Program-made: the position numbers and the translations under genes
Part shown: in pieces, positions 6,406 through 63,531 of the stretch
Layout of the letters: each line of letters opens with the position of its first letter
How positions within the stretch are numbered: position 1 is the stretch's first letter
The notes under the pieces: generated by a model
Seen by the model: only the letters and a program-made list of their open reading frames with translations
The model's database searches: none
What the model was told of the DNA's origin: nothing
Virus record (IMG/VR): IMGVR_UViG_3300050821_010487
Span: 18,336 to 82,335 of that record
Source: a virus
Length of the DNA stretch: 64,000 bases
Direction: 5' to 3' (one strand)

Positions 6406-6731
6406 CCACCTGGCCAGCTCGCCGCGTAGCGGACATGGACGCACTGGAGCGGCCCGGGGATTACTGCGGCCCGTTCCCCATCATCTACGGCCCGGGTGAC
6501 GAGCGAAAGGTCGTGTGGTTCCTGCTGCCCCTGCACGAAGGTGCCGGCAGGTTCGACCGGCCCACCCCGGGAAGCGGACTGCACGGCGTCTACGAGCCGC
6601 CGTGGACGTTCCGGGAGTGTGGGGGCGGCTCCCTGGAGATCCGGGCGTCGATCGCCTGCGGGCGCGGCTCCCCGGACGGCGAGTACTTCCATGGCTACCT
6701 CGATGAGGGCAACATCTGGCGGTCGGCCTGA
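6402..6731 (+). CDS. Hypothetical protein
   Basis: 109 aa, coupled to terL. Confidence 0.7.
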   Translation: MTTWPARRVADMDALERPGDYCGPFPIIYGPGDERKVVWFLLPLHEGAGRFDRPTPGSGLHGVYEPPWTFRECGGGSLEIRASIACGRGSPDGEYFHGYLDEGNIWRSA

Positions 6732-8857
6732 TGGCGATCAGCCGCTGGCAGGCGCCGGATACCCAGGCGGCCGGGCCGCTGGACGTCCTGTCGTGGTTCG
6801 ATGGGCCCCCGGTGCCGGACCCGGTCACTTTCGTCATCGGTGAGGAGTGGCTGGGGAAGCCGAACCTGTATCCCCGCCAGGTGACGCTGCTGAAGCTCAT
6901 CTTCCTGCGCGACGACCTGTTCACCGACTACGACCGGGCGGTCATTGACGAGTGGTGCCAGCGGTTCGCCGACACCAACCCTGACGCCGAGGACAACAAG
7001 TTCTCCGCCCGGACCAAGGGCCTCCAGCCGGACATCTACGAGCGGATCGCCTACCTGAAGCGGCGCGGCTACAAGTGGTTCCCCGAGGTGATCCTTGCGA
7101 TCGGCCGGCGCGGCTCGAAGGGGTACCTGTCGGCGCTGTGCATGGCGTACGTGCTGTGGAACTACATCGCCAAGGGCAACCCGCAGGAGTTCTACGGCAT
7201 CGACCAGGAGAAGCCGCTGGCGGTCGCGATCTTCGCCGGCAAGAAGGAGCAGGCGAAGGAGAACCTGTGGGGTGACCTGTACTCGGTGCTGACCACCGCG
7301 CCGTGCTACACGTCCTACATCTCCGAGCCGCAGGCCGAGAGCCTGACGATCTACGCGCCGTACGACTTCGTCCGGATGCACAAGATGGCCCAGCGGGGCA
7401 TCTCCACGACCAAGGACGCGGCCAGCTTCCGGGTGGTTCCCCGGGAGTCCACGCCGCTGGCCCCCCGTGGCCCGGCCGGGTGCATCCTCGGCTTTGACGA
7501 GGCCGCGCACGTGAAAAACGCCGGCGTCACCCGGGAGTTCGGCATCGTCTACGGCGCGGCTAAGCCGTCCCTCGACCAGTTCGGCACCGACGGCTTCATC
7601 GTGCTGCCGTCCTCCACCTGGGAGATGATCGGCAAGTTCTACGAGCTGTGGAACCTGTCGCTGCAGCGCGAGCCGGGCCCCGAGCCCGGCGAGTACTTCC
7701 CGGCCTACCCCACCAAGTTCATGGTCCAGCTCGAATCGTGGGCGCCGTACGAGGACTGGGAGCGGGCCCCGCTGATCCCGCTGTTCCCGGCCGGTTACCG
7801 CGGCGACCTTGGCGAGTACGAGCCGGACGCGCTGCCGACCCTCCAGCCGCTCAAGGGCGCTATCCAGGCCTACGACGAGGAGATGGCGAGGGAGGAGAAG
7901 GCCAACCCCGACACATTTGCCGTAGAGAGAAGATCAGACTGGGCTACGGCGATGGACGCCTACCTGAACACCGCCAAGATCGATGCGATGTTCTCCCCAT
8001 GGGAGGGGCGGCTGCCGGACTACGGCCGGCCCGAGCTGATGATGCAGGTGTCCGGCCCGATGTCGATCGACTACTCCGCGCACGGCGACCCGGCCTCGGT
8101 CAACTGCCGCTTCGGTTTCGCGGTCGCGCACACCGAGCCGGGCCGCGACGGCCTGGACCACGCGGTGTTCGACCTGATCCACTTCTGGGACCCGGCCGAC
8201 TTCGAGGGCCACATCATCGACTACGACGAGGTCATCGGGTGGATCTACGACAACGTCGTGATGCGGTTCATGCCGGGGGAGCTGACCTTCGACCAGTTCA
8301 ACTCGGTCGCCTCGGTCCAGGCGCTGCAGAAGAAGGTCCGCGCATCCCGGCTGCCGAAGAACGTCCTGGTGTACGAGCGGACCGCGACGGCGCCGCTGAA
8401 CTGGTCCACCTGGGAGACGTTCAAGGCGGCGCTCAACATGGGGTTCGTGCACGCGCCGCTGCACGGCGAGGCCAAGGACGAGCTGAAGTTCGTGCAGAAG
8501 CCCGAGGGGGTCCAGAAGGTGGTCCCGGCCGACTCCGGGCCGGTGCAAACGAAGGACATTGCCGACTGCATCGCGATCGTGTCGGCGCGGCTGCTCGGCG
8601 AGCAGATGAAGGCCTACCTGGCCAAGGACCTGAAGAACCAGCGGCCTCACGTGGCGATGCAGGGCTACGACGCGATGGACCGGTTCTCCCCCGATGCCGG
8701 CAACCCGTATTCGGCGGCCCTGGGCGGTCTCGGCGGCCGTGGTGCGCTGTCGCGGGGGATGCGCCCGGGGATGCCGGGGGCGGCCGGGAGGATGGGCAGA
8801 GTCCCGGCTGGCCGGCTGGGCAACGGGCCCGCGGGGATGCGCCGGCATAGATCCTGA
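6731..8857 (+). CDS. terL: Terminase large subunit
   Basis: LYPRQ adenine motif, IGRRGSKG Walker A, ILGFDEAAH Walker B, LPSS, nuclease motifs HGDPA, TFDQF, KDIAD. Confidence 0.92.
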   Translation: MAISRWQAPDTQAAGPLDVLSWFDGPPVPDPVTFVIGEEWLGKPNLYPRQVTLLKLIFLRDDLFTDYDRAVIDEWCQRFADTNPDAEDNKFSARTKGLQPDIYERIAYLKRRGYKWFPEVILAIGRRGSKGYLSALCMAYVLWNYIAKGNPQEFYGIDQEKPLAVAIFAGKKEQAKENLWGDLYSVLTTAPCYTSYISEPQAESLTIYAPYDFVRMHKMAQRGISTTKDAASFRVVPRESTPLAPRGPAGCILGFDEAAHVKNAGVTREFGIVYGAAKPSLDQFGTDGFIVLPSSTWEMIGKFYELWNLSLQREPGPEPGEYFPAYPTKFMVQLESWAPYEDWERAPLIPLFPAGYRGDLGEYEPDALPTLQPLKGAIQAYDEEMAREEKANPDTFAVERRSDWATAMDAYLNTAKIDAMFSPWEGRLPDYGRPELMMQVSGPMSIDYSAHGDPASVNCRFGFAVAHTEPGRDGLDHAVFDLIHFWDPADFEGHIIDYDEVIGWIYDNVVMRFMPGELTFDQFNSVASVQALQKKVRASRLPKNVLVYERTATAPLNWSTWETFKAALNMGFVHAPLHGEAKDELKFVQKPEGVQKVVPADSGPVQTKDIADCIAIVSARLLGEQMKAYLAKDLKNQRPHVAMQGYDAMDRFSPDAGNPYSAALGGLGGRGALSRGMRPGMPGAAGRMGRVPAGRLGNGPAGMRRHRS

Positions 8858-22486: not shown

Positions 22487-23113
22487 GTGGACAGCAAAGA
22501 AGCCAGGCTCCAGGACTTGTACCAGGGCTACGCGGAAACCGAGATCCTGCAGCAGGTCAGGCACCGGGACGGCAAGCCCAAGACCCTGGTCATGCCCAAG
22601 GGCCCTCTCGACTCCCCGCTGGCCATCGTCGGCGAGGCACCGGGCCGCGACGAGGAGCAGACCGGTGAGCCGTTCACCGGCAACGCCGGCCGGCTGCTGC
22701 AGGAGCTGTTCGCGGAGGCCATGATCCCGTGGCAGTTCTGTTACCGGGCCAACGTGCTCCCGTGGCGCCCGTCGCTCGCCAACCGCACCCCCTACCCGTT
22801 TGAGATCGACGCCTCCGTGCTCCGTGTCCAGGCTGAGATCGCGCTCGTAGGCCCGCAGATCGTGATCGCGGCCGGGGCGGTCGCCTGGCAGGGGATCACC
22901 GCCCGGCAGATCATGCATTTCGCGGCTGCCCGCGGCCGGTGGGTCCGGAACTGGTCCCCCGGCTGGTACGCCCACTTCCAGTGTGACCTGCTCGCGATCT
23001 ACCACCCGGCCGCCCTGCTGCACGCCCCGGCGACCAGGCGCAGCGAGATGCGGGCCGAGACCGTGGCCGCCCTGCGCAGCGTCCTGGCAGGCGAGCGTGT
23101 CGCAGCCGCCTGA
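22487..23113 (+). CDS. Uracil-DNA glycosylase, family 4-like
   Basis: IVGEAPGRDE, PFTGNAGRLL, YHPAALL. Confidence 0.88.
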   Translation: MDSKEARLQDLYQGYAETEILQQVRHRDGKPKTLVMPKGPLDSPLAIVGEAPGRDEEQTGEPFTGNAGRLLQELFAEAMIPWQFCYRANVLPWRPSLANRTPYPFEIDASVLRVQAEIALVGPQIVIAAGAVAWQGITARQIMHFAAARGRWVRNWSPGWYAHFQCDLLAIYHPAALLHAPATRRSEMRAETVAALRSVLAGERVAAA

Positions 23114-28935: not shown

Positions 28936-29202
28936 TCAGCCTCCGGGGGGTTGATCTTTGGGGAACCGGAACCCGCCCCAGCATGAGCAGCCGACGGACG
29001 GGTCAGAACAGTCGTGGGCATTGCGCAGCCAGCCGGCGAAGTTGGCCAGGTTCACCCGGGGCGAGTAATGCCGGCTCACGCCAGGGCCCGAAGGAGAGCG
29101 CCACGGCTTGCGCCAGAAGAGGTCGAGCACAGGCCCGTGCCAGCGGCGCATCCGCCGCTGCATCACGTGGATCACTTCGTCGTTACGGGTTTTGTACGGC
29201 AT
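28936..29202 (-). CDS. Hypothetical protein
   Basis: AAGGAG RBS. Confidence 0.5.
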   Translation of the reverse strand: MPYKTRNDEVIHVMQRRMRRWHGPVLDLFWRKPWRSPSGPGVSRHYSPRVNLANFAGWLRNAHDCSDPSVGCSCWGGFRFPKDQPPGG

Positions 29203-30148
29203 GTCCCGGGTCTCCTTCCAGTGCATGCTTGATCTCGCGGCCGAAAGCCCGTGCGACGGGCGGCGGGAAGGCGTTGCCGATCTGCCGGTAGGCGGCCGTC
29301 TTGGTGCCTGAGAACCACCAGTCATCGGGGAAGCCCTGCAGCCGCGCGACCATGCGGAGCGTCAGCCGGGGGAGGTGGTCAGCGGGCTCGTCCGGGCCGG
29401 GGGCCAGCTCGGCGATCGAGCCGCCGTTGACGTGCAGCTCCCGCCATGCCGCCCTGGCCCGGGTCGGGCCGAGGTCGGGGCCGCCGTGCTTCTTGCTGCC
29501 GCCCACGATGGTGGGTGCGACTTTGTTGCAGAGTAGCGACCAGTGATGCGCCCACGGCCATCCGTTCTCTGCCATCAGGTCGTACAGCGCTTCCCCCGCG
29601 GTGGCGCCGGGGACGATGGTGTAGGGCCAGTGGAACCGTTGGCACCACGGTGCGCGCAGCGCCACCAGGACCAGGCGCGGCCGGAGCTGGGGAACGCCGA
29701 AGGTGCAGGCGTTGATGCCCTGCCACCAGCTCTGGGCGTAACCCAGTTTCCAGAGCCGCTCCGCCACCTGCCAGCGGTAGCCGGCGAACTTCTTCTGGCC
29801 GAGGCCCATGACGTTCTCCAGCAGCACCGCGCGGGGCTGGGCTTCCTCGATGATCCGCAGCGCCTCAGGGAACAGGTCGCGCTCGTCGGCGTGCCCGAGC
29901 TGCTTGCTGCCGACGGAGAACGGCTGGCACGGGACACCCCCGGCGACCAGGTCCACGCCGCGGAACTGGCGGCCGTCGAGGTTGCGGATGTCGTCCTCGA
30001 TGATTTTCGTGCCGCAGAGGTTGGTGCGCAGTGTGATGCAGGCGTCGGAGTCGATCTCGGCTAGCGCCACGTGCCGGAACCCGGCCTGGTCGAGTCCGAG
30101 CGCCTGGCCGCCGCCTCCCGCGCAGATCTCCACGGCTGTGAGGCTCAT
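29183..30148 (-). CDS. C5 cytosine DNA methyltransferase (NaeI/NgoMIV-like)
   Basis: EICAGGGG, GGVPCQPFS, ENV, QLRPR, YRQIGNAFPP; TRD APTIVGGSKKHGGPDLGPTRAR. Confidence 0.93.
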   Translation of the reverse strand: MSLTAVEICAGGGGQALGLDQAGFRHVALAEIDSDACITLRTNLCGTKIIEDDIRNLDGRQFRGVDLVAGGVPCQPFSVGSKQLGHADERDLFPEALRIIEEAQPRAVLLENVMGLGQKKFAGYRWQVAERLWKLGYAQSWWQGINACTFGVPQLRPRLVLVALRAPWCQRFHWPYTIVPGATAGEALYDLMAENGWPWAHHWSLLCNKVAPTIVGGSKKHGGPDLGPTRARAAWRELHVNGGSIAELAPGPDEPADHLPRLTLRMVARLQGFPDDWWFSGTKTAAYRQIGNAFPPPVARAFGREIKHALEGDPGHAVQNP

Positions 30149-30846
30149 ACGGACGTGACCTCCTCTGGGGTGGGTGCCCGCCAGGCCCATGCCTGCGACC
30201 GCTCAGCGCGCCTCTCGTGCAGCGCGCGGAGAGAGTAGTAGCGGCTCTGGATGTCAGCCTTGATGCCGTCCCGGACCCCGAGGTCGATCGTCGCCAGGGC
30301 GGCCTGGTAGGCCTTGTAGGAGCAGCGTGGCCGCAGACCCAGGGCAGCCTTCAAACGGCGCGTGTAGACCTCCTGGGCGCGCTCCATGAGGGTCCTGGTG
30401 TAGGCGCTGTACTTCGCCCGCAGAGGGTGCCCGTAGTAGCGACCGTGGCAGGCCTCGCAGTAGTGCCGGTACCTGCCTCCGCCGACCGAGGTGCCCCAGC
30501 CCTGGACCCCAGAGCCCTTGCAGCCAGGGCAATCGAGGTAGCCGGTGAAGTGCTCCCGGTCGCGGCGCCAGCTCGGGCAGTGCGGCGGGTAGTTCACGCT
30601 GCGGGCGCCGTCGAGAACCGCGATCTTCTCGACGTAGGGCCCGGCCGCGGTGCAGGCGTAGCACAGGCCGTTGCACGCTCCGGCGTGGACTTCAGCGGGG
30701 TGGTTGCCGTCGGCGTTCAGCAGCTTGTTACAGCGCAGGCAGTGCAGCTCGACCTGGAATAGGCCGTCGCTGCCCATCTGCAGATCCTTGAGCTGCTGCT
30801 GCCAGCGTTCTACCACTGCTGCGGCGGGGCCGCGTTCGCTGGTCAT
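30145..30846 (-). CDS. Cys-rich hypothetical protein
   Basis: Several CxxC motifs. Confidence 0.7.
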   Translation of the reverse strand: MTSERGPAAAVVERWQQQLKDLQMGSDGLFQVELHCLRCNKLLNADGNHPAEVHAGACNGLCYACTAAGPYVEKIAVLDGARSVNYPPHCPSWRRDREHFTGYLDCPGCKGSGVQGWGTSVGGGRYRHYCEACHGRYYGHPLRAKYSAYTRTLMERAQEVYTRRLKAALGLRPRCSYKAYQAALATIDLGVRDGIKADIQSRYYSLRALHERRAERSQAWAWRAPTPEEVTSV

Positions 30847-53270: not shown

Positions 53271-53295
53271 CCGTTAGCAAGGAACCCTGTATTCT
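53267..53295 (+). promoter_or_regulatory. Conserved phage promoter
   Basis: TTGACC-GTTAGCAAGGAACCCTG-TATTCT. Confidence 0.85.
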
Positions 53296-56206: not shown

Positions 56207-57403
56207 ATGACCGCAACCACGTTCCGTAGCGTGCTCGCCGAGCGCGAGTACCGGGCGGTGTGGGCCGCGCAGCTCGTGAGCATCGCCGGGGACCAGTTCG
56301 CCCGGATCGCCGTGAGCGTCCTGGTCTACCAGCGGACCCGCTCGCCCCTGCTGGCCGCTGCCGCGTTTGCCGCGACGGTCCTGGCGTCGTTCGCGGGCGG
56401 CCTGCTGCTCGGCTGGGTGGCCGACCGTTACCCGAAGCGGGCGGTCATGGTCACCTCTGACGTGGCCTGCACGGGGATCGTGCTGATCATGGCCATCCCT
56501 GGGGTGCCGCTGTGGGCGCTGCTGGCCCTGCTCGGCGTGGTGTCGCTGGCGTTCCAGCCGTTCCTCGCCGCGCGGATGGCAACCAACCGGGAGATCCTCG
56601 GCAAGGACCGCTTCCAGGCCGGCGTCGCCATCACGACCAGCACCTACCAGGTGGGGCAGCTCATCGGCTACAGCCTCGGCGGCGTGATCACCGCGGTGGC
56701 CGGGGTGCACGTAGCGCTGCTGATCGACGCGGCCTCGTTCGCCACCTCGGCGGTGCTGATCCGTGCCTGGGTGCGCCCCCGGCCGCCAGAAGAGCCGGCC
56801 GCCCGGCTGGAGCGGCCGGGGCTGTGGGATGGCGTGCGGCAGGTGTTCTCCTCCCCCGTGGCCCGGACCGCGCTGGCGCTGATGTGCATGGCCGCGTTCT
56901 TCGTCGTCCCGGAGGGGGTGTCGGTGCCGCTGGCCCACCAGCTCGGCGGCGGTGCTGCCACGGCCGGGCTGCTGCTGGCCGCGATGACCGCTGGCGCCGC
57001 GGCGGGGCTGCTCGGCTGGACGCGGCTTGTCCCACCGGGCACGCTGAGTCAGTTCGCCGCGCTGCTGGCGCTGACCGCCTGCGCCATGCTGGTCCCGTTT
57101 GCCTTCTCGCCGCCGCTGGGCCCGGCACTGGCCCTGCTCGCGGCCTCGGGCATCTACGCGGGGTACATCCCGTCGGTGGCCAGCTCTCTGTTCGGCGCGG
57201 TTCCCGCCGAGCACCGGGGCAAGGTGTCCGGGGTGGTCGGCGCGGGCATGGATCTCGGCCAGGGCGTCATGATCCTGGTGGCGGGCGCGGTAGCTCAGCG
57301 GCTCAGCGCTTCGGTGACGATCGCGATCATCGGCGCGGCCGGGACGGTCGTGGCGGTGCCGCTCGCCCTGGCATGGAGGAGAGTCAGCTCTCTTGCTCAT
57401 TAG
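56207..57403 (+). CDS. MFS transporter
   Basis: About 12 hydrophobic helices; GWVADRYPKR motif A; PAEHRGKVSG. Confidence 0.92.
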   Translation: MTATTFRSVLAEREYRAVWAAQLVSIAGDQFARIAVSVLVYQRTRSPLLAAAAFAATVLASFAGGLLLGWVADRYPKRAVMVTSDVACTGIVLIMAIPGVPLWALLALLGVVSLAFQPFLAARMATNREILGKDRFQAGVAITTSTYQVGQLIGYSLGGVITAVAGVHVALLIDAASFATSAVLIRAWVRPRPPEEPAARLERPGLWDGVRQVFSSPVARTALALMCMAAFFVVPEGVSVPLAHQLGGGAATAGLLLAAMTAGAAAGLLGWTRLVPPGTLSQFAALLALTACAMLVPFAFSPPLGPALALLAASGIYAGYIPSVASSLFGAVPAEHRGKVSGVVGAGMDLGQGVMILVAGAVAQRLSASVTIAIIGAAGTVVAVPLALAWRRVSSLAH

Positions 57404-57421
57404 CAAGAAACCCTGTAATGT
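57393..57421 (+). promoter_or_regulatory. Conserved phage promoter
   Basis: TTGCTC-ATTAGCAAGAAACCCTG-TAATGT. Confidence 0.85.
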
Positions 57422-57618: not shown

Positions 57619-57990
57619 ATGACTACCCTCTTCCAGCACCTGGCCCGGATGACCCCCACCAGCCTCTACCCCGCCTCGCACTCCGCCGAGCGCGTCTACT
57701 GGGCGATCAGCCAGCTCCAGGACCCCCACGCCGAGGTGCTCCGCTGGGCCTCGAACGACAGTTGCCCGATGGACGACATGCTTGCCGCCTGGGTCACCAT
57801 CGGCGAGATCACCATCGAGCAGGCCATGGCCACCTCCGACGCCCGCGCCGGGGAGACCCAGGCCTTCCTGGCCGCCTACCGCGCGAATCCGCCGCAGCCA
57901 GACGCCGAGCAGCTCGCCGAGATGCGCAACGCCTTCGGGCCTGGCGCCATCGTCGTCAACGCCGTCACCGGCCAGAGCTGGAGGGTCTGA
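57619..57990 (+). CDS. Hypothetical phage protein
   Basis: EMRNAFGPGAIVVNAVTG tail. Confidence 0.75.
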   Translation: MTTLFQHLARMTPTSLYPASHSAERVYWAISQLQDPHAEVLRWASNDSCPMDDMLAAWVTIGEITIEQAMATSDARAGETQAFLAAYRANPPQPDAEQLAEMRNAFGPGAIVVNAVTGQSWRV

Positions 57991-57991
57991 C

Positions 57992-58189
57992 ATGGAGCAG
58001 CTCGCATTGTTCGAGGCTGACCGTCCCGTCTCCATGGAGGAGCTGCGGGCGCTGTGGGCCAAGCTGGAAACGCGCGGCGAGCTGTGGAACGGCATGACCG
58101 GTCACTACCTGGCCGAGAAGTACGGCGCCCGCCTGTATCGGGTGCGGGGCATCGGCTGGTTCGTCCGCCCAGAGAATCAGGTGGCCTGA
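57992..58189 (+). CDS. Hypothetical protein
   Basis: GGAGG RBS. Confidence 0.6.
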   Translation: MEQLALFEADRPVSMEELRALWAKLETRGELWNGMTGHYLAEKYGARLYRVRGIGWFVRPENQVA

Positions 58190-58190
58190 C

Positions 58191-58679
58191 ATGGCCCAGC
58201 GCCAGAGGTACACCCCCCTGCAGCTCCGCATCCTCAAGATGCTCACCGAGCGCGGCCCGATGAGCTGCGCCCAGATGGGCGTCTCCGCCAGGGCGCTGTG
58301 GTGGCTGCGCAGCCACGGCTTCGTCAAGGCCGCGGGGAACGCCAGCGGCCTGTGGGAGGTTACTGACGCTGGCCGCGAGATCTCCCCCAAGCCCGCCACC
58401 TGGCCCGAAGGCTTGGAGGAGGGCGGCTACCACGACATCTCGTGCCGGTGCAGCCGCCATTGCCGCAACTGCTTCGAGGACCTGGACAAGGTCCGGGCCC
58501 TGCAGATCCAGATGATCGAGGACCAGCGCCCCGGCGCCCCCGCCGAGCCGCTGAGCAAGCGTGCCGGGTACTGCTGTGGCTGGTGCCAGGGCCGGGCCCA
58601 GCGCGACCGCCAGCTCGACCGGCACCTGGCCCAGCAAGTTCCCGGCAGCCGCCCGGAAGGGCAGAGAGCCTCCCCGTGA
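58191..58679 (+). CDS. Winged-helix plus Cys-rich protein
   Basis: TPLQLRILKML...LRSHGFV...VTDAGR. Confidence 0.6.
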   Translation: MAQRQRYTPLQLRILKMLTERGPMSCAQMGVSARALWWLRSHGFVKAAGNASGLWEVTDAGREISPKPATWPEGLEEGGYHDISCRCSRHCRNCFEDLDKVRALQIQMIEDQRPGAPAEPLSKRAGYCCGWCQGRAQRDRQLDRHLAQQVPGSRPEGQRASP

Positions 58680-58689
58680 GGCTGGAAGG

Positions 58690-59298
58690 ATGACCGTGAT
58701 GAAGGAGCCCACCTCCCGCGAGCTGGCAGAGAAGATCACCGCGGGCATCCACGAGGCTGTCGTGCTCCGGATGCCCGAGGGCGCCAGCCTCACCCAGATC
58801 CACGCCCACCTGATCGCCAGCAACCTGATGGTGTCCCGCGACACGGTCGTCTTCTGGGTCCGGTCTCTCCACGACTCCGGGAAGCTCGCCTACTCTGTCC
58901 ACCATTTCTGGGTGCTCGGGCCGAACGCCTCGATCCTGCGGTGGGACAAGCCCCCGCCCGAGCTGCCCTACGAGCAGTGGGCCGCCTACCAGGCCGACAG
59001 CACGCCTCCCGGCACCTACCAGCCGAACATGAGCCCGGAGTGGATGGGCCGCTGGAAGGCGAAGATGGCCGGCCAGCGCTCGAAGAACCTCAGCGAGCTG
59101 CAGGTGGTGATCCGCAAGACCGCTGGCGGCGTCCAGGTCAAGATCATCGTCTTCCACAGCGGCGAGATGTCGATGAGCATGAACGGCACCGCACAGTTCT
59201 ACGAAACGGAGGTCGCCGAGCTGCCCCTCGTGGTCGATGAGGCCCGCCAGGCGATGAGGTTGTATGTCCGCCACCACCCTGTCAAGGAAACGGCATAG
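58690..59298 (+). CDS. Hypothetical protein
   Basis: 202 aa. Confidence 0.65.
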   Translation: MTVMKEPTSRELAEKITAGIHEAVVLRMPEGASLTQIHAHLIASNLMVSRDTVVFWVRSLHDSGKLAYSVHHFWVLGPNASILRWDKPPPELPYEQWAAYQADSTPPGTYQPNMSPEWMGRWKAKMAGQRSKNLSELQVVIRKTAGGVQVKIIVFHSGEMSMSMNGTAQFYETEVAELPLVVDEARQAMRLYVRHHPVKETA

Positions 59299-59583
59299 AT
59301 GAACCGCAAGCCCAAGCCGGTACTTCCCCCCACCCGCCACCGGAAGCGCTGGCTCGCGGTGCTGCTCTCCGGCGCGTCCAACATCGGCATCATCACGCCC
59401 TGGCTCATCGCTGGCGGCCCGGCCGGGGACGTCCACGTGATGTTCAGCCAGATGCAGAAGATCGGCTGGCTCATCACCCACACCGAGCCCGACCCCGGCC
59501 TCCAGCCGCCGCGGAAGTTCTTCGGCCTGACTCCCGAGGGACGCAGCGAGGTCATGAAGCTGCTGCACCTCGAAGAGGGCTAA
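59299..59583 (+). CDS. PadR-like winged-helix protein
   Basis: MQKIGWLI...PPRKFFGLTPEGR. Confidence 0.65.
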   Translation: MNRKPKPVLPPTRHRKRWLAVLLSGASNIGIITPWLIAGGPAGDVHVMFSQMQKIGWLITHTEPDPGLQPPRKFFGLTPEGRSEVMKLLHLEEG

Positions 59584-60752
59584 ACCATCTCCGTGACCCT
59601 CGGCCGCAGCGGCAGCGGTGGCATGATCAGCTCGATCGCCCGCCCGGCGATCTTGTCCGGAACCCGCGCCAGGCGGCTGCCTTCCTCGGTGTGCACGGTC
59701 CCCAGGCTGTCGAGGAGGACCATGTCCACCGAACCCTGCTCCGGCATGCGGTAGCCCCGCTTGTTGTCCTTGTGCACGGCCGCCAGGACATCCCGGGGCG
59801 GTATCCGGTGTTCCAGGGTCATCGGTGCGCCCACCTTGGCCAGGATCAGCCGGTGGGCATGCTCGCCGGAGGCGGCGAGGTACCCCATCTCCGCGGAGAT
59901 GCGGGCAGCGGCGAGCATGCCCAGCGCGACCGCCAGGCCGTGAGGAATCCCGCCCGGGGCGAGCAGCTCGATCGCATGGCCGATCGTGTGCCCGTACTCC
60001 AGGGCGAGGCCTGGCCCGGTTTCCCGGGGGTCCTGGCGCATCACCTTCTGCTTGGCGGTGATGCACAGCGAGATGAAGTCCGACAGCTCCCAGATGCTGT
60101 AGTCCACCTCCGGCCGCAGCCGGGCCATGGCCCACTTCATCCGCTCCGGCTCGATCGCCAGGACGTTCTTGGCCATCTCGCACAGAGCTGAACGGATCTC
60201 GTCGTCCGGCAGCGTCTTGAGGAAGTTCAGGTCCGCCCAGATGAACTCGGGTGCGTGGAACGCGCCGAGGTGGTTCTTGCCCTCGGGAGAGTTGACCGCC
60301 TGCTTGAGGCTGAGCACCGAGTCGGACATGGCCAGCAGGGTGGTGGGGATGTGGACGAGCCGGGCGCCGCGCAGGAACAGGTGGGCCAGCAGCCCGGCGA
60401 CGTTGCCGACAAGGCCGCCGCCGAGCGCGACCACGACCGACCGCCTGGTGCACCCGTCCCGGAGCGCTGCCCCGGCCAGCTCACCGACCGCTTCGAGGGT
60501 CTTCGCCTGCTCCCTGGTGGTGATCGAGTAGACGCCTGTGGGCGCGTGCAGGGTGAGGATCTCGTAGACCCTGGCCGTGTGCTTCGGGGGGAGCTTGCGG
60601 TCAACCACCAGGATGAACCGGTCGGCGTCCAGGCGCCGCAGGAGCCCGCAGAGGGTGCGGCTGTCGTTGCGGGCCCGCAGGTGGTAGCTGAACGCATGCG
60701 TCCCGAACTCGATGTGCTGGTCGAACTCGGCGGTGAGCTGAACGGTGGTCAT
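59580..60752 (-). CDS. 2-deoxy-scyllo-inosose synthase-like sugar-phosphate cyclase (BtrC-like)
   Basis: GGGLVGNVAG, PTTLLAMSDSVLSLKQAVN, GKN, CEMAKN, LEYGHTIGHAIE, HG.AV, DNKRGY; GAAGAGG RBS. Confidence 0.88.
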   Translation of the reverse strand: MTTVQLTAEFDQHIEFGTHAFSYHLRARNDSRTLCGLLRRLDADRFILVVDRKLPPKHTARVYEILTLHAPTGVYSITTREQAKTLEAVGELAGAALRDGCTRRSVVVALGGGLVGNVAGLLAHLFLRGARLVHIPTTLLAMSDSVLSLKQAVNSPEGKNHLGAFHAPEFIWADLNFLKTLPDDEIRSALCEMAKNVLAIEPERMKWAMARLRPEVDYSIWELSDFISLCITAKQKVMRQDPRETGPGLALEYGHTIGHAIELLAPGGIPHGLAVALGMLAAARISAEMGYLAASGEHAHRLILAKVGAPMTLEHRIPPRDVLAAVHKDNKRGYRMPEQGSVDMVLLDSLGTVHTEEGSRLARVPDKIAGRAIELIMPPLPLRPRVTEMV

Positions 60753-60857
60753 CGGGCGCCTCTTCCCGGTAGCTGGCAACTCCTGCCGAGCATGCGCCCG
60801 TGACCTTGCGGACAACCTTGCAGTTTTGTTGATGCCCAGGCCAGGCCCGGGAAAGGC

Positions 60858-60890
60858 CAGGGCCCCAGCCATATGCCGGCCGGGGCCCTG
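60858..60890 (-). terminator. Hairpin between small ORF and DOI synthase-like gene
   Basis: CAGGGCCCC...GGGGCCCTG 9 bp stem, GCCTTT follows on minus strand. Confidence 0.4.
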
Positions 60891-60907
60891 ATGATCGAGA
60901 GCGGCTC

Positions 60908-61099
60908 TTAGCTGCTGTCCTCCGTCTCGCACTCGGCACGCAGCCGGGCACCTGAGCAGAGGGCCGTGAACTGAGCCCTGGAAACTGTTCTGCCCCGGCG
61001 ATCTTGTGGCCTGATGAGCATTCTGAGCACAGGCTGGGTGCAGATCGCCGGCCTCCCCTCCGAGATGAGGTAGCGTTCCGCGGTCAGGTCGGGTGGCAT
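60908..61099 (-). CDS. 63 aa hypothetical protein
   Basis: AGGAGG RBS before ATG; atypical codon usage. Confidence 0.4.
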   Translation of the reverse strand: MPPDLTAERYLISEGRPAICTQPVLRMLIRPQDRRGRTVSRAQFTALCSGARLRAECETEDSS

Positions 61100-61182
61100 T
61101 GGCGCCTCCTGATCCACCTGGGGGACCACTCCCCACTGGCATGCTCAGCCGGAGACCGGCCTAAACCAGGACCAACCGGGGG

Positions 61183-62355
61183 TTACTCTGCGCAAGCGCC
61201 CGCCGGCAGCGCCTCGTGGTGGAAGTACCGCCAGAAGATTCGCCCGGCCCCCTCGGGCTCGGACACCGCGCTCGTCAGGTCGGCGGTGGCGATCATGATC
61301 CCCGGCTGCAGGCTCCAGGCGACCACCCCGATGCCCCACTGGTGCAGGCACCGCAGGTAGTTCCCCATGGTCTCGGTCGAGCGGGACCAGTCGTAGCCGC
61401 CCCGGTAGTTGGTCATCTCGCCGTTGACCACCGGGACCCCCGCTTCGGCGAGGTAGCCGAACTGGTGCCACCAGACGCGCTCGGTGGGTGCGCACTTGTT
61501 CGGCCATGGGCAGCCGGGCTTGTGAAAGGAATACACCAGGCCCTGGCACCACGCCACCCGCTGCTGGCAGGGGACCAGCGGAACGCCGCCGAGCTGGCTG
61601 CCCCAGGCCTTGCCCTCCAGCCAGAGCTGGTTCTGCGAGCCGATCGAGCGGACGTAACGGGCCAGCGGCCACATCTTCGCCTGCCACACCGCCCAGCCGC
61701 AGACCTTGGTCTGGTTCCCCTGGTTGTGCGGCTCGCAGCGGGGTTCGTTGAACAGGTCGAAGACGACCCGCGGATTGTGCCCGTAGCTCCGGGTGAAGTG
61801 GCGCCAGAAGCTGTAGGTCGCCGCGGTCGGGCCCTGCTCGTTCTCGGGGAAGCCGGTGGCGGGCTCGGTCTGCGCGTTCACGATCACGGCCAGGTGGCGG
61901 TGCAGCGCGTAGCCGATGATGTGCTGGACCGAGTGGTAGTAGCCCGGCGACCACAGGTTGCCCTTCGGGCCGACCAGCTTGTCCTGGAGGATCTGCAGCC
62001 GGATCGCGTTGCCGTGCCAGCTCTTCCACCGGGGGTGCCCTGGCGTGCTGACCGCGCGGATCTGCGACTCGGCGGACCGGGTGAACAGCAGCCAGTTCTC
62101 CAGGGAGGACAAGGCGATGGCCCGGATGCCGCCCGGCCGGGGATAGCGGGAGCAGTCGGCGACGGGGCAGATGCGGAAGCCCGCCGCGGGCGCTGTCACC
62201 GCGGGTGGAGCGAGCCTGGCAGCGGGGGAGCGGAGCACGAACGGCGTGACCGCGAAGGCGGCCAGCGCGAAGGCGACGGTGAGCCAGGCCCATCCCCCGA
62301 ACTGGCCTTTGCGGCGATGGCGGACGCGCGGCAGTGGCGCAGTGATGTCAGTCAT
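61183..62355 (-). CDS. Glycoside hydrolase family 5-like, membrane-anchored or secreted
   Basis: N-terminal TM; VVFDLFNEP (acid/base), VYSFH, PVVNGE (nucleophile), AWS. Confidence 0.82.
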   Translation of the reverse strand: MTDITAPLPRVRHRRKGQFGGWAWLTVAFALAAFAVTPFVLRSPAARLAPPAVTAPAAGFRICPVADCSRYPRPGGIRAIALSSLENWLLFTRSAESQIRAVSTPGHPRWKSWHGNAIRLQILQDKLVGPKGNLWSPGYYHSVQHIIGYALHRHLAVIVNAQTEPATGFPENEQGPTAATYSFWRHFTRSYGHNPRVVFDLFNEPRCEPHNQGNQTKVCGWAVWQAKMWPLARYVRSIGSQNQLWLEGKAWGSQLGGVPLVPCQQRVAWCQGLVYSFHKPGCPWPNKCAPTERVWWHQFGYLAEAGVPVVNGEMTNYRGGYDWSRSTETMGNYLRCLHQWGIGVVAWSLQPGIMIATADLTSAVSEPEGAGRIFWRYFHHEALPAGACAE

Positions 62356-62472
62356 GTTCCCCGCTTGAACTGGCCGAGATACGGTCACCAAATACCTTAG
62401 TAAGGAACCCTGCATTAAGTGACCGGGACCGCCCGCCTGGTGTCCGCCCCACGGAAGAAGTGGGAGGCGAGC

Positions 62473-63531
62473 ATGGCTGACGACCTGTATCCGGTGGCGC
62501 AAAAGGGCGTAGGCGTCCGTATTGCGCATGATCCGGGCGATCCTCTCATTACCTCCCATTGCCCATTTTGCGGGTCGGGACAGGTCGTAGGGCGCAGCGA
62601 TGGAACAATTAGCTGCGATTTCTGTGGGCAGGTCTATATTGTCCGGGTTCAGCCCGCGTTCCCCGGCATGCCCCAGGCACCGATGGGCCCCGGCGCCCCC
62701 TCAGACATCGGCCCCGACGGCGGCGTGCTGCCCCCCGACGCGATGGGCCCCGACGGCCTGCCCATGGGCGGCGCGGAGATGGGCCCAGACGGCGAGCCCC
62801 TGGACGACGAGGGCTTCCCGCCCGATGAGATGGACGACGAGGAGGGCGGGCCGCCCGAGGACCTCTCAGGGCCTCCTGGAGCCGCGGACGACGAGGATGC
62901 AGACGACGAGCCGCCCCCGCCCAAGAAGAAGGACAAGGGCAAGTCCAAGAAGGGCTCCCTCACCACCTACCACGGCCTCAACGGCGAGGTGCTGACCGAG
63001 AGCCAGTTCATCAGGCACCTGGCCGCAACCTTGTCCGGTGGCCACCCGGCCGTGATGGCCCAGCTCCGTGCCGAGGCAGAGGTCGGCCCGCACGCTCACT
63101 ACCCGAGCGGCCCAGAGCCGGGAGCCGGCCACTACTGCCAGCGCTGCGGCCAGGGCATCGAGCAGTCCCCCGCGGGCCACTGGGTTCCCCGCCTGAGCAA
63201 GGTGCCTCTCGACCCATCCGGGTACGCGCCGGTGTCTCCCGCGGACCGCAAGCCACGGGCTACGCCGGCACCGCAGCTCCCCCTGGCGCCGATGCACAAC
63301 CCCCGGAGAACAGCCGCGTTCCACCAGGACGCCCGCGGCCATGGCTCCGGCGCCAGCAACCCCGACCAGTGGCCGACCCAGGGCGAGGTCGTGCATCACG
63401 TCCTCCAGCGGCACCCCGAGATCCACGACGCCTTCACCCCCGAGGCCGCTGACGCCGCGCACCGGTCGATCCACGAGCACGTCCCCGAGTACCTCGACCA
63501 CGCCCACCACGACCAGGCGGCCGTGGCCTGA
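62473..63531 (+). CDS. Zinc-ribbon, low-complexity protein upstream of portal
   Basis: HCPFCGSG...CDFC; acidic/Pro-rich tract; GGAGG RBS. Confidence 0.75.
   Translation: MADDLYPVAQKGVGVRIAHDPGDPLITSHCPFCGSGQVVGRSDGTISCDFCGQVYIVRVQPAFPGMPQAPMGPGAPSDIGPDGGVLPPDAMGPDGLPMGGAEMGPDGEPLDDEGFPPDEMDDEEGGPPEDLSGPPGAADDEDADDEPPPPKKKDKGKSKKGSLTTYHGLNGEVLTESQFIRHLAATLSGGHPAVMAQLRAEAEVGPHAHYPSGPEPGAGHYCQRCGQGIEQSPAGHWVPRLSKVPLDPSGYAPVSPADRKPRATPAPQLPLAPMHNPRRTAAFHQDARGHGSGASNPDQWPTQGEVVHHVLQRHPEIHDAFTPEAADAAHRSIHEHVPEYLDHAHHDQAAVA

Follow-up and report, generated by a model that had tools for sequence, protein, structure and literature searches.

A BtrC-type 2-deoxy-scyllo-inosose synthase homolog encoded by a soil phage

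2-Deoxy-scyllo-inosose (DOI) synthase (DOIS) performs the committed step toward the 2-deoxystreptamine aminoglycosides, and BtrC, the DOIS of the butirosin producer, belongs to an aminoglycoside cluster together with an aminotransferase, a dehydrogenase and a glycosyltransferase. Here we examine P0001, a gene for a DOIS-type sugar phosphate cyclase of 390 amino acids that lies on the minus strand at positions 59580–60752 of a 64,000-nucleotide stretch of viral DNA (the window). The window comprises the last 64 kb of the linear, 82,335-bp IMG/VR record IMGVR_UViG_3300050821_010487, and the gene was assigned from its open reading frame (ORF), its translation, its Pfam domains, its match in the Protein Data Bank (PDB) and its position in phylogenetic trees. 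A phage with a DOIS is unexpected, as the aminoglycosides derived from DOI act against phages and have been shown to protect Streptomyces communities from them (PMC9239200), in agreement with the view of aminoglycosides as anti-phage metabolites taken in an earlier annotation of the window. That annotation, which we refer to as the original prediction, described the gene as a phage-encoded DOIS homolog and as the entry enzyme of 2-deoxystreptamine biosynthesis. We retain it as regards the DOIS type, the phage-encoded and non-chimeric nature of the gene and the lack of any other viral example, and we part from it on the aminoglycoside role, which is the best-known role of the family and not what the evidence here suggests. 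The reading that we moderately favor is that P0001 is stand-alone, independently expressed cargo, a DOIS that would make DOI from the glucose-6-phosphate of the host.

Sequence, fold and active site of the cyclase

The reading frame of P0001 is intact over its 390 codons, and the sequence GAAGAGG stands just 5′ of the ATG. A longer version of the gene was rejected: the frame is open to 61142, and because homologs share the methionine at which P0001 begins, the extension is taken to be merely a GC-rich open frame. Both halves of the DHQ_synthase domain are matched in Pfam (PF01761 and PF24621, 4e-33 and 2e-24), and the GC content of the gene (0.687), like that of its third codon positions (GC3, 0.926), corresponds to the phage background.

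Among all PDB sequences, the best phmmer match of P0001 is BtrC (2D2X/2GRU) at 235 bits, followed at a distance by the best dehydroquinate synthase (DHQS; 138 bits), DDGS (86 bits) and the EEVS ValA (70 bits). The NCBIfam equivalog model for aroB, TIGR01357, gives 235 bits, which is under its cutoff of 305 bits. An AlphaFold model derived from 30 homologs (pLDDT 92.7, pTM 0.91) predicts a DHQS-like fold of two domains, a Rossmann-type N domain and a helical metal-binding C domain. The top Foldseek matches of this model are four BtrC chains (TM 0.84–0.94; 0.87–0.94 for 2GRU and 2D2X), with every DHQS structure ranking below them and EEVS and DDGS much further away. In an IQ-TREE phylogeny of 120 sequences, rooted on annotated AroB proteins of Salmonella and Acinetobacter and built without BtrC itself, P0001 falls within a DOIS-type clade of 106 rows (SH-aLRT 98%) that also includes the cyclase of an apramycin-like cluster of Streptoalloteichus tenebrarius. 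PDB scores, the aroB score below cutoff, the fold and the rooted tree all agree that P0001 is a BtrC-type DOIS homolog and not an AroB, as originally predicted; the grouping with AroB that would have counted against that prediction was not seen.

All of the motifs on which the original prediction relied are present in P0001, and in HMMER alignments to PDB sequences they correspond to those of BtrC rather than to those of DHQS. P0001 reads GGGLVGNVAG where BtrC has GGGLTGNVAG and DHQS has GGGVIGDMIG. It next reads SDSVLSLKQAVN against SDSVLSIKQAVN in BtrC and DSSVGGKTAID in DHQS, with SDSVLSLKQ standing where DHQS reads DSSVGGKT. The motif CEMAKN is aligned with CELVKN of BtrC. Further on, LEYGHTIGHAIE corresponds to FEYGHTIGHAIE in BtrC and LNFGHTIGHAIE in DHQS, with LEYGHT in the place of the DHQS sequence LNFGHT, and DNKRGY is identical in P0001 and BtrC. 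The glutamate of EYGHT (E252), to which the original prediction had drawn attention, aligns with E243 of BtrC and is an asparagine in DHQS. P0001 and BtrC thus have in common their fold, length, metal ligands, catalytic lysine, E243 and DOIS-specific motifs, although their identity in the structural alignment is only about 35%. AroB shares the superfamily and the Pfam domains with P0001, but differs from it in that P0001 has N117 for an aspartate, SLKQ for GGKT and E252 for an asparagine, as well as the DNKRGY insertion.

To describe the active site more broadly, we defined as canonical the 31 positions at which 97 other DOIS-type proteins show little or no variation. P0001 carries the consensus residue at every one of them (31/31). 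The DOIS-specific residues N117, S148-L-K150-Q151, N196, E252 and D329–Y334 are all present, are matched in 95–97 of the 97 DOIS-type rows and are unlike the residues of AroB-like rows; the superfamily residues E192, H255, H271, K150, K195, K234, D144 and N160 are conserved as well. The stem of the clade and the branch of P0001 are together long (0.38 in the 120-row tree), and the retention of all 31 sites despite such long branches suggests that these sites have been held under constraint. This argues for purifying selection in the P0001 lineage, though part of its history may have been bacterial. On present evidence P0001 would be a functional DOIS-type enzyme, and one that presumably depends on NAD+ and a divalent metal. 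From the alignment, the conservation counts and the literature on BtrC, we take the ligand residues of P0001 to be equivalent to the metal ligands of that enzyme.

It is conceivable that the same fold supports another chemistry in P0001, with a different sugar phosphate as substrate or a different carbocycle as product, as for EboD/DEIS, which acts on mannose-6-phosphate. New specificities are still emerging in the cyclase superfamily, DEIS being one example (PMC12904256), the subclade of P0001 is without a characterized member, and its gene contexts differ from those of 2-deoxystreptamine clusters. However, all DOIS-specific active-site positions are identical to those of BtrC and AprC, P0001 reaches 181 bits with the EboD-like model TIGR04425, whose cutoff is 400, and the great structural distance of EEVS and DDGS points the same way. 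We regard a change of chemistry as very unlikely.

Bacterial relatives and partner enzymes

The relatives of P0001 in protein databases are, at 53–80% identity, members of a clade found only in metagenomes and, at about 50%, actinomycete proteins that NCBI names DOIS. Among 185,579 species genomes, 292 relatives were identified by a motif scan, and two types of context can be told apart by a DegT homolog within 10 kb, namely DegT-bearing clusters and DegT-less loci. The DegT-bearing clusters, classical or aminoglycoside-like, were seen in Streptomyces, Kitasatospora, Lentzea, Nocardia, Paenibacillus, Photorhabdus/Xenorhabdus and Pseudomonas. The locus of the last matches a published aminoglycoside-like cluster (PMC8719888), and the DOIS genes of Nocardia have been linked to nabscessins (PMC11364655). 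Many DOIS-type genes in named genomes, among them those of a clade neighboring that of P0001 (about 50% identity; Streptomyces, Kitasatospora and Lentzea), have DegT at a distance of 1.7 kb. The S. tenebrarius gene (locus L161) resembles P0001 in its DOIS-type clade, in 43% identity and in the possession of all canonical sites. Its flanks, however, hold DegT, APH, a GHMP kinase, GT2 and GT4 proteins and an FAD oxidoreductase, whereas those of P0001 hold a GH5 glycoside hydrolase, a 63-aa ORF and phage genes.

P0001 itself belongs to a nine-member clade (99% support) of the DegT-less type. Neither this clade nor the neighboring ones (L013, L083, L014, L093 of Mycobacterium europaeum, L101 of Nocardia, and L092) have DegT, even when 10 kb of flanking DNA is included. 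Within the clade P0001 pairs with P0002 (80% identity, support 100/99), and the pair is sister to soil actinobacterial genes; bacterial relatives are at most 64% identical to P0001. The proteins P0003–P0009, the closest bacterial relatives with an intact active site, are encoded by solitary genes, flanked by genes for a DrrAB-type ABC exporter, DUF397/XRE, TetR, an MBL-fold hydrolase, AraC and a glyoxalase-type protein. These flanking genes and the DNA upstream of the cyclase are absent from the phage; only the cyclase ORF is common to both, which suggests that only the ORF was taken up.

A conserved DegT-less operon is also found among the relatives, in which the cyclase comes first and is followed by a cupin (260 aa), an SDR, a second cupin, a SARP and an ABC-2 or MFS exporter (L013:9950-17641, L083:9866-19647, L093:9968-12713, L101:9986-12726 and L092:9902-14988). 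Its carriers are Actinomycetota, among them M. europaeum, a Nocardia species and MAGs. A literature search linking DOIS with cupins found nothing. DOIS-type enzymes are widespread outside aminoglycoside clusters, with about 292 species genomes holding relatives, and many of the genes are in this DOIS-cupin-SDR-SARP-exporter arrangement.

The DegT-less genes of soil Actinomycetota, comprising P0003–P0009 and the cupin/SDR operons, are the nearest phylogenetic neighbors of P0001 and, like it, are without an aminotransferase partner. They recur beside exporters, and the phage gene has an MFS gene nearby. Unlike P0001, they are chromosomal and are accompanied by host-type regulators (TetR, XRE/DUF397, SARP). 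The ancestor of P0001 thus appears to have come from an actinobacterial lineage that uses the cyclase outside aminoglycoside clusters.

A different fate is seen in the monophyletic group P0013–P0029 (support 100/99), in which 11–17 of the 31 canonical sites are changed. The changes include the catalytic lysine (K150T), N160R, the NAD-binding glycines (G113D/E) and the replacement of DNKRGY by DDRPxx, and the genes always stand beside NB-ARC/TPR and SARP (BTAD) regulators (L006:316-1491, L010:1146-2399, L011, L012). A soil actinobacterial lineage has in this way turned DOIS into a degenerate protein that is probably non-catalytic and may be a pseudo-enzyme turned ligand sensor. P0001 and P0002 branch outside this group, and P0001–P0009 as well as P0031 keep all 31 sites.

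Partner enzymes of the kind that accompany BtrC were sought in the available part of the phage genome. No DegT/DnrJ/EryC1 aminotransferase (PF01041), no GT1 glycosyltransferase (PF00534) and no radical SAM protein (PF04055) was found in the entire 82 kb record, while the same searches were positive in 14 of 14 control genomes; zinc-ADH-type dehydrogenases were not searched separately. The original prediction had noted the lack of visible partners in the window, and for these three families this holds for the whole record.

These results bear on the proposal that P0001 provides the entry step to 2-deoxystreptamine or another aminocyclitol, with partners supplied by the host or by that half of the phage genome which the record lacks, and that it boosts an aminoglycoside-type metabolite, for example to exclude competing phages. 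P0001 is of bona fide DOIS type, many DOIS-type genes in named genomes, those of the neighboring clade included, have DegT nearby, phage infection is blocked by aminoglycosides (PMC9239200), and half of the phage genome is unseen. Against this, DegT, GT1 and radical SAM are absent from 82 kb, the own subclade of P0001 and its sister clades are without DegT in their contigs, including those with 10-kb flanks (L013, L083, L093, L101), and partner genes are normally adjacent, a place taken here by GH5 and the 63-aa ORF. We therefore do not follow the original prediction in assigning P0001 to 2-deoxystreptamine biosynthesis, a role that we consider decidedly unlikely.

The cassette and its phage surroundings

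The record is that of a real phage, a soil myovirus of large genome (about 160 kb) whose host is likely to be an actinomycete, and its CheckV completeness is 51%. The terminase large subunit (terL; window 6731–8857) is 33% identical to that of Rhodococcus phage E3 (E 8e-89) and also resembles those of 135–160 kb Gordonia and Mycobacterium myoviruses. At the other end of the window, the N-terminus of the portal protein, cut by the end of the contig, is encoded on the plus strand at 63531–64000 (phrog_2833, 1.5e-19) and shares 30% identity with proteins annotated as portals in Gordonia and Rhodococcus phages.

A 19-bp box, TTACAGGGTTTCTTGCTAA, is present 15 times in the window, where chance would give 0 (sites include 32331, 34931, 36202, 38674, 40747, 47530, 49256, 53274 and 57400), and its orientation follows the strand of the operon downstream. 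A perfect copy of this putative promoter at 57400–57418 (minus strand) is oriented like the copies before other plus-strand operons and heads an operon at 57619–59583, which consists of five small plus-strand phage ORFs with no known function, recognized from the ORF list and GC3 and without PHROG matches. This operon and the cyclase gene converge, and their stop codons overlap by four bases at 59580–59583. On the other side of the cyclase the portal gene begins 2.8 kb away, and the cyclase is therefore bracketed by the phage regulon and the virion module.

The cyclase is the last member of a minus-strand cassette that runs counter to the flanking genes, in the order GH5, 63-aa ORF, GC-rich hairpin, cyclase. 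The first gene (61183–62355, with an alternative start at 62559) encodes a GH5 glycoside hydrolase with an N-terminal membrane anchor (Pfam Cellulase/GH5, 8e-22). Its family is small, with 122 proteins known only from metagenomes, and it has no match in any deposited phage. The gene recurs in unrelated IMG/VR contigs: in one (L165:5785-6963), nucleotide identity of 83% is confined to the gene, which lies between two integrases and a holin/tail module, and in the other (L166:2929-4059) it adjoins a terminase. By these sequence comparisons, GH5 is an independent mobile phage moron. The 63-aa ORF (60908–61099, minus strand, GC3 0.77) belongs to no known family and is preceded by an AGGAGG ribosome-binding site at 61105–61110. 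Between it and the cyclase is the hairpin (60860–60888, minus strand), with an 11-bp stem and a 7-nt loop, which is possibly a terminator or attenuator; a scan for the terminator consensus did not call it, the T-tail being absent. One terminator-like site inside GH5 was discounted as being at chance level. Divergent from GH5, a plus-strand gene at 62419–63531 encodes a 370-aa zinc-ribbon protein with acidic low-complexity sequence and no known family.

No gene of the cassette bears the phage-wide 19-bp box, and for this reason the cassette is probably transcribed from its own signals, in the manner of a moron. No Rfam family was matched at 59400–62700, and no flanking direct or inverted repeats above chance were found around the cassette. 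Single-protein scans of IMG/VR found no relatives of the two phage genes that flank it. When the 63-aa ORF, GH5 and MFS were sought beside bacterial DOIS-type genes, nothing but two weak MFS matches was found. There is thus no conserved linkage, and the neighbors probably do not form a pathway with the cyclase.

The MFS transporter in question (56207–57403, plus strand) is EntS/MFS_3-like (Pfam MFS_1, 3.5e-28; phrog_2034, 1e-23), with NCBIfam EntS-like matches below cutoff. It lies on the strand opposite to the cyclase and 2.2 kb distant from it, and the box at 57400–57418 sits directly after its stop codon. Since the boxes at 53274 and 57400 bracket this plus-strand operon, MFS is apparently its last gene. 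The host-like transporter is thus wired into the phage box program, whereas the cyclase cassette is not. All that ties the transporter to the cyclase is that DegT-less DOIS genes are generally found close to exporters.

The original prediction had allowed for a chimeric, host-derived segment, and the gene does lie 3.2 kb from the contig end in a record that is a linear fragment, with three cargo genes that look host-like. However, phage genes stand on both sides and base composition shows no break across the region. Moreover, the region is contained in Logan contigs from three runs of soil metagenomes, which are filed under separate studies. The left junction is bridged by an exact contig (59240–59691), the spacer between cyclase and GH5 by another (60676–61353), and the right junction by exact contigs in all three runs (about 62371–62576). 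The best-matching run possibly derives from the source sample, and the studies, which have year and habitat in common, may belong to one campaign, so this agreement is supportive and not fully independent. An assembly chimera is unlikely, and we give hardly any weight to an artefact in which host flanking DNA was misjoined to a viral contig.

Two joints in these runs, at 60002–60288 (run X3) and 60137–61801 (run X2), were considered as deletions and rejected; each appears in one contig, whose short side has at most 30 letters or which shows 13 mismatches, and they are taken to be relatives or repeats. The high depth at 60136–60469 stems from contigs that are 90–95% alike and represent the conserved cyclase core of other organisms, and the gaps in the coverage by runs X2, X3 and X5 do not speak for absence.

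Exact contigs from a soil metatranscriptome overlap the 5′ end of the cyclase (60578–60754, depth 3.3) and the 63-aa ORF (60880–61118, depth 21, about six times that of the cyclase contig). They provide a hint that both are transcribed.

Possible roles of the phage cyclase

Other viral examples of a DOIS were sought and, as the original prediction supposed, none emerged. A tblastn search of the 50,697 phage records of INPHARED found only host-type aroB at 28–35% identity, in largely bacterial contigs. Three scans of the 2.9 million contigs of IMG/VR, from which records very near that of the window may be omitted, gave no DOIS-type gene and no other occurrence of the DOIS signature EYGHT[VI]GH. 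BFVD contained no structural match at E 0.001 or better, and no literature combining DOI with phage was found. P0001 resembles the auxiliary metabolic genes and morons of phages in being a host-derived metabolic gene, on the strand opposite to its neighbors and outside the phage promoter regulon. It differs from them in that no entry cyclase of secondary metabolism from this superfamily occurs in the viral collections searched. What is new is a DOIS-type cyclase in a phage, unprecedented in the surveyed data; the enzyme family and the category of moron or auxiliary gene are known.

In the reading that we favor, the cassette of GH5, 63-aa ORF and cyclase would have been inserted between the phage-box operon and the portal region, and in the infected or carrier cell the cyclase would use glucose-6-phosphate of the host to form DOI or a carbocycle very similar to it. 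Because the available half of the phage encodes no further enzyme that processes DOI, the product would presumably be used by host enzymes or exported. If active, P0001 would extend the auxiliary metabolism of phages into cyclitol secondary metabolism.

Several observations weigh against this reading. The substrate and product of P0001 are assigned by homology, and the draining of glucose-6-phosphate is not obviously useful to a virus. With about 51% of the genome available, the remainder could hold partner genes. The gene is a singleton among phages: it comes from one metagenomic record, no sister phage attests to its retention, and P0002 could be phage or bacterial. A sigma-70 scan, whose consensus is poor for actinomycetes, found no promoter in the cassette. 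The RNA signal consists of two short contigs from one metatranscriptome, carries no information on strand or level and could reflect DNA carry-over.

Some of these points would also suit a neutral passenger, that is, a host gene that illegitimate recombination brought into the phage not long ago, which plays no role there and has not yet decayed. The lack of any other viral example and of DegT, GT1 and radical-SAM partners in 82 kb is consistent with this, and the presence of a mobile moron next door in GH5 indicates that the site accepts cargo. However, the nearest relative is 80% identical and bacterial ones at most 64%, so that capture was not recent relative to the hosts sampled. The 31 canonical sites have been kept while sister lineages lost many, the composition is fully phage-like, and the intact ORF has a ribosome-binding site and is overlapped by RNA contigs. 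A passenger, which would make the phage cyclase a curiosity, is unlikely in our view.

Alternatively, DOI or a host-modified derivative of it might be exported by the box-driven phage MFS and act outside the cell, either in signaling or as a chemical weapon directed at rival phages or bacteria. The pairing of DegT-less bacterial DOIS genes with exporters, taken together with the action of aminoglycosides on phages (PMC9239200), makes a phage-made exported compound conceivable by analogy. We hold this to be quite improbable; if true, it would represent a virus-encoded entry step of secondary metabolism devoted to chemical superinfection exclusion. The original prediction had named three possible purposes, which were DNA or virion modification, manipulation of host aminocyclitol chemistry and carbon diversion. 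A purpose in DNA modification is favored by nothing that we found, and a link of this kind with a DpdA-like gene of the phage was dropped, as the two genes are 25 kb apart and no chemistry or gene linkage is known to connect them.

Beyond the cassette, the record encodes a replication module, distantly like that of the 135–160 kb Rhodococcus, Gordonia and Mycobacterium myoviruses; in this part of the gene set are a primase, exonucleases, a resolvase, a UvsX-like recombinase and a DnaE-like polymerase, which matches phrog_405 at 839 bits. Identity of the polymerase to its counterparts in cultured phages does not exceed about 32%, which points to a new phage lineage. Pfam matches identify a protein of the uracil-DNA-glycosylase superfamily at 22487–23113 and a C5 cytosine DNA methyltransferase at 29183–30190. 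The terL and portal genes are 57 kb apart, though both match 135–160 kb actinomycete myoviruses at about 30–33%, and a TraB/FtsK-like gene in the same record (G000 1–1811) may indicate a phage with plasmid-like features.

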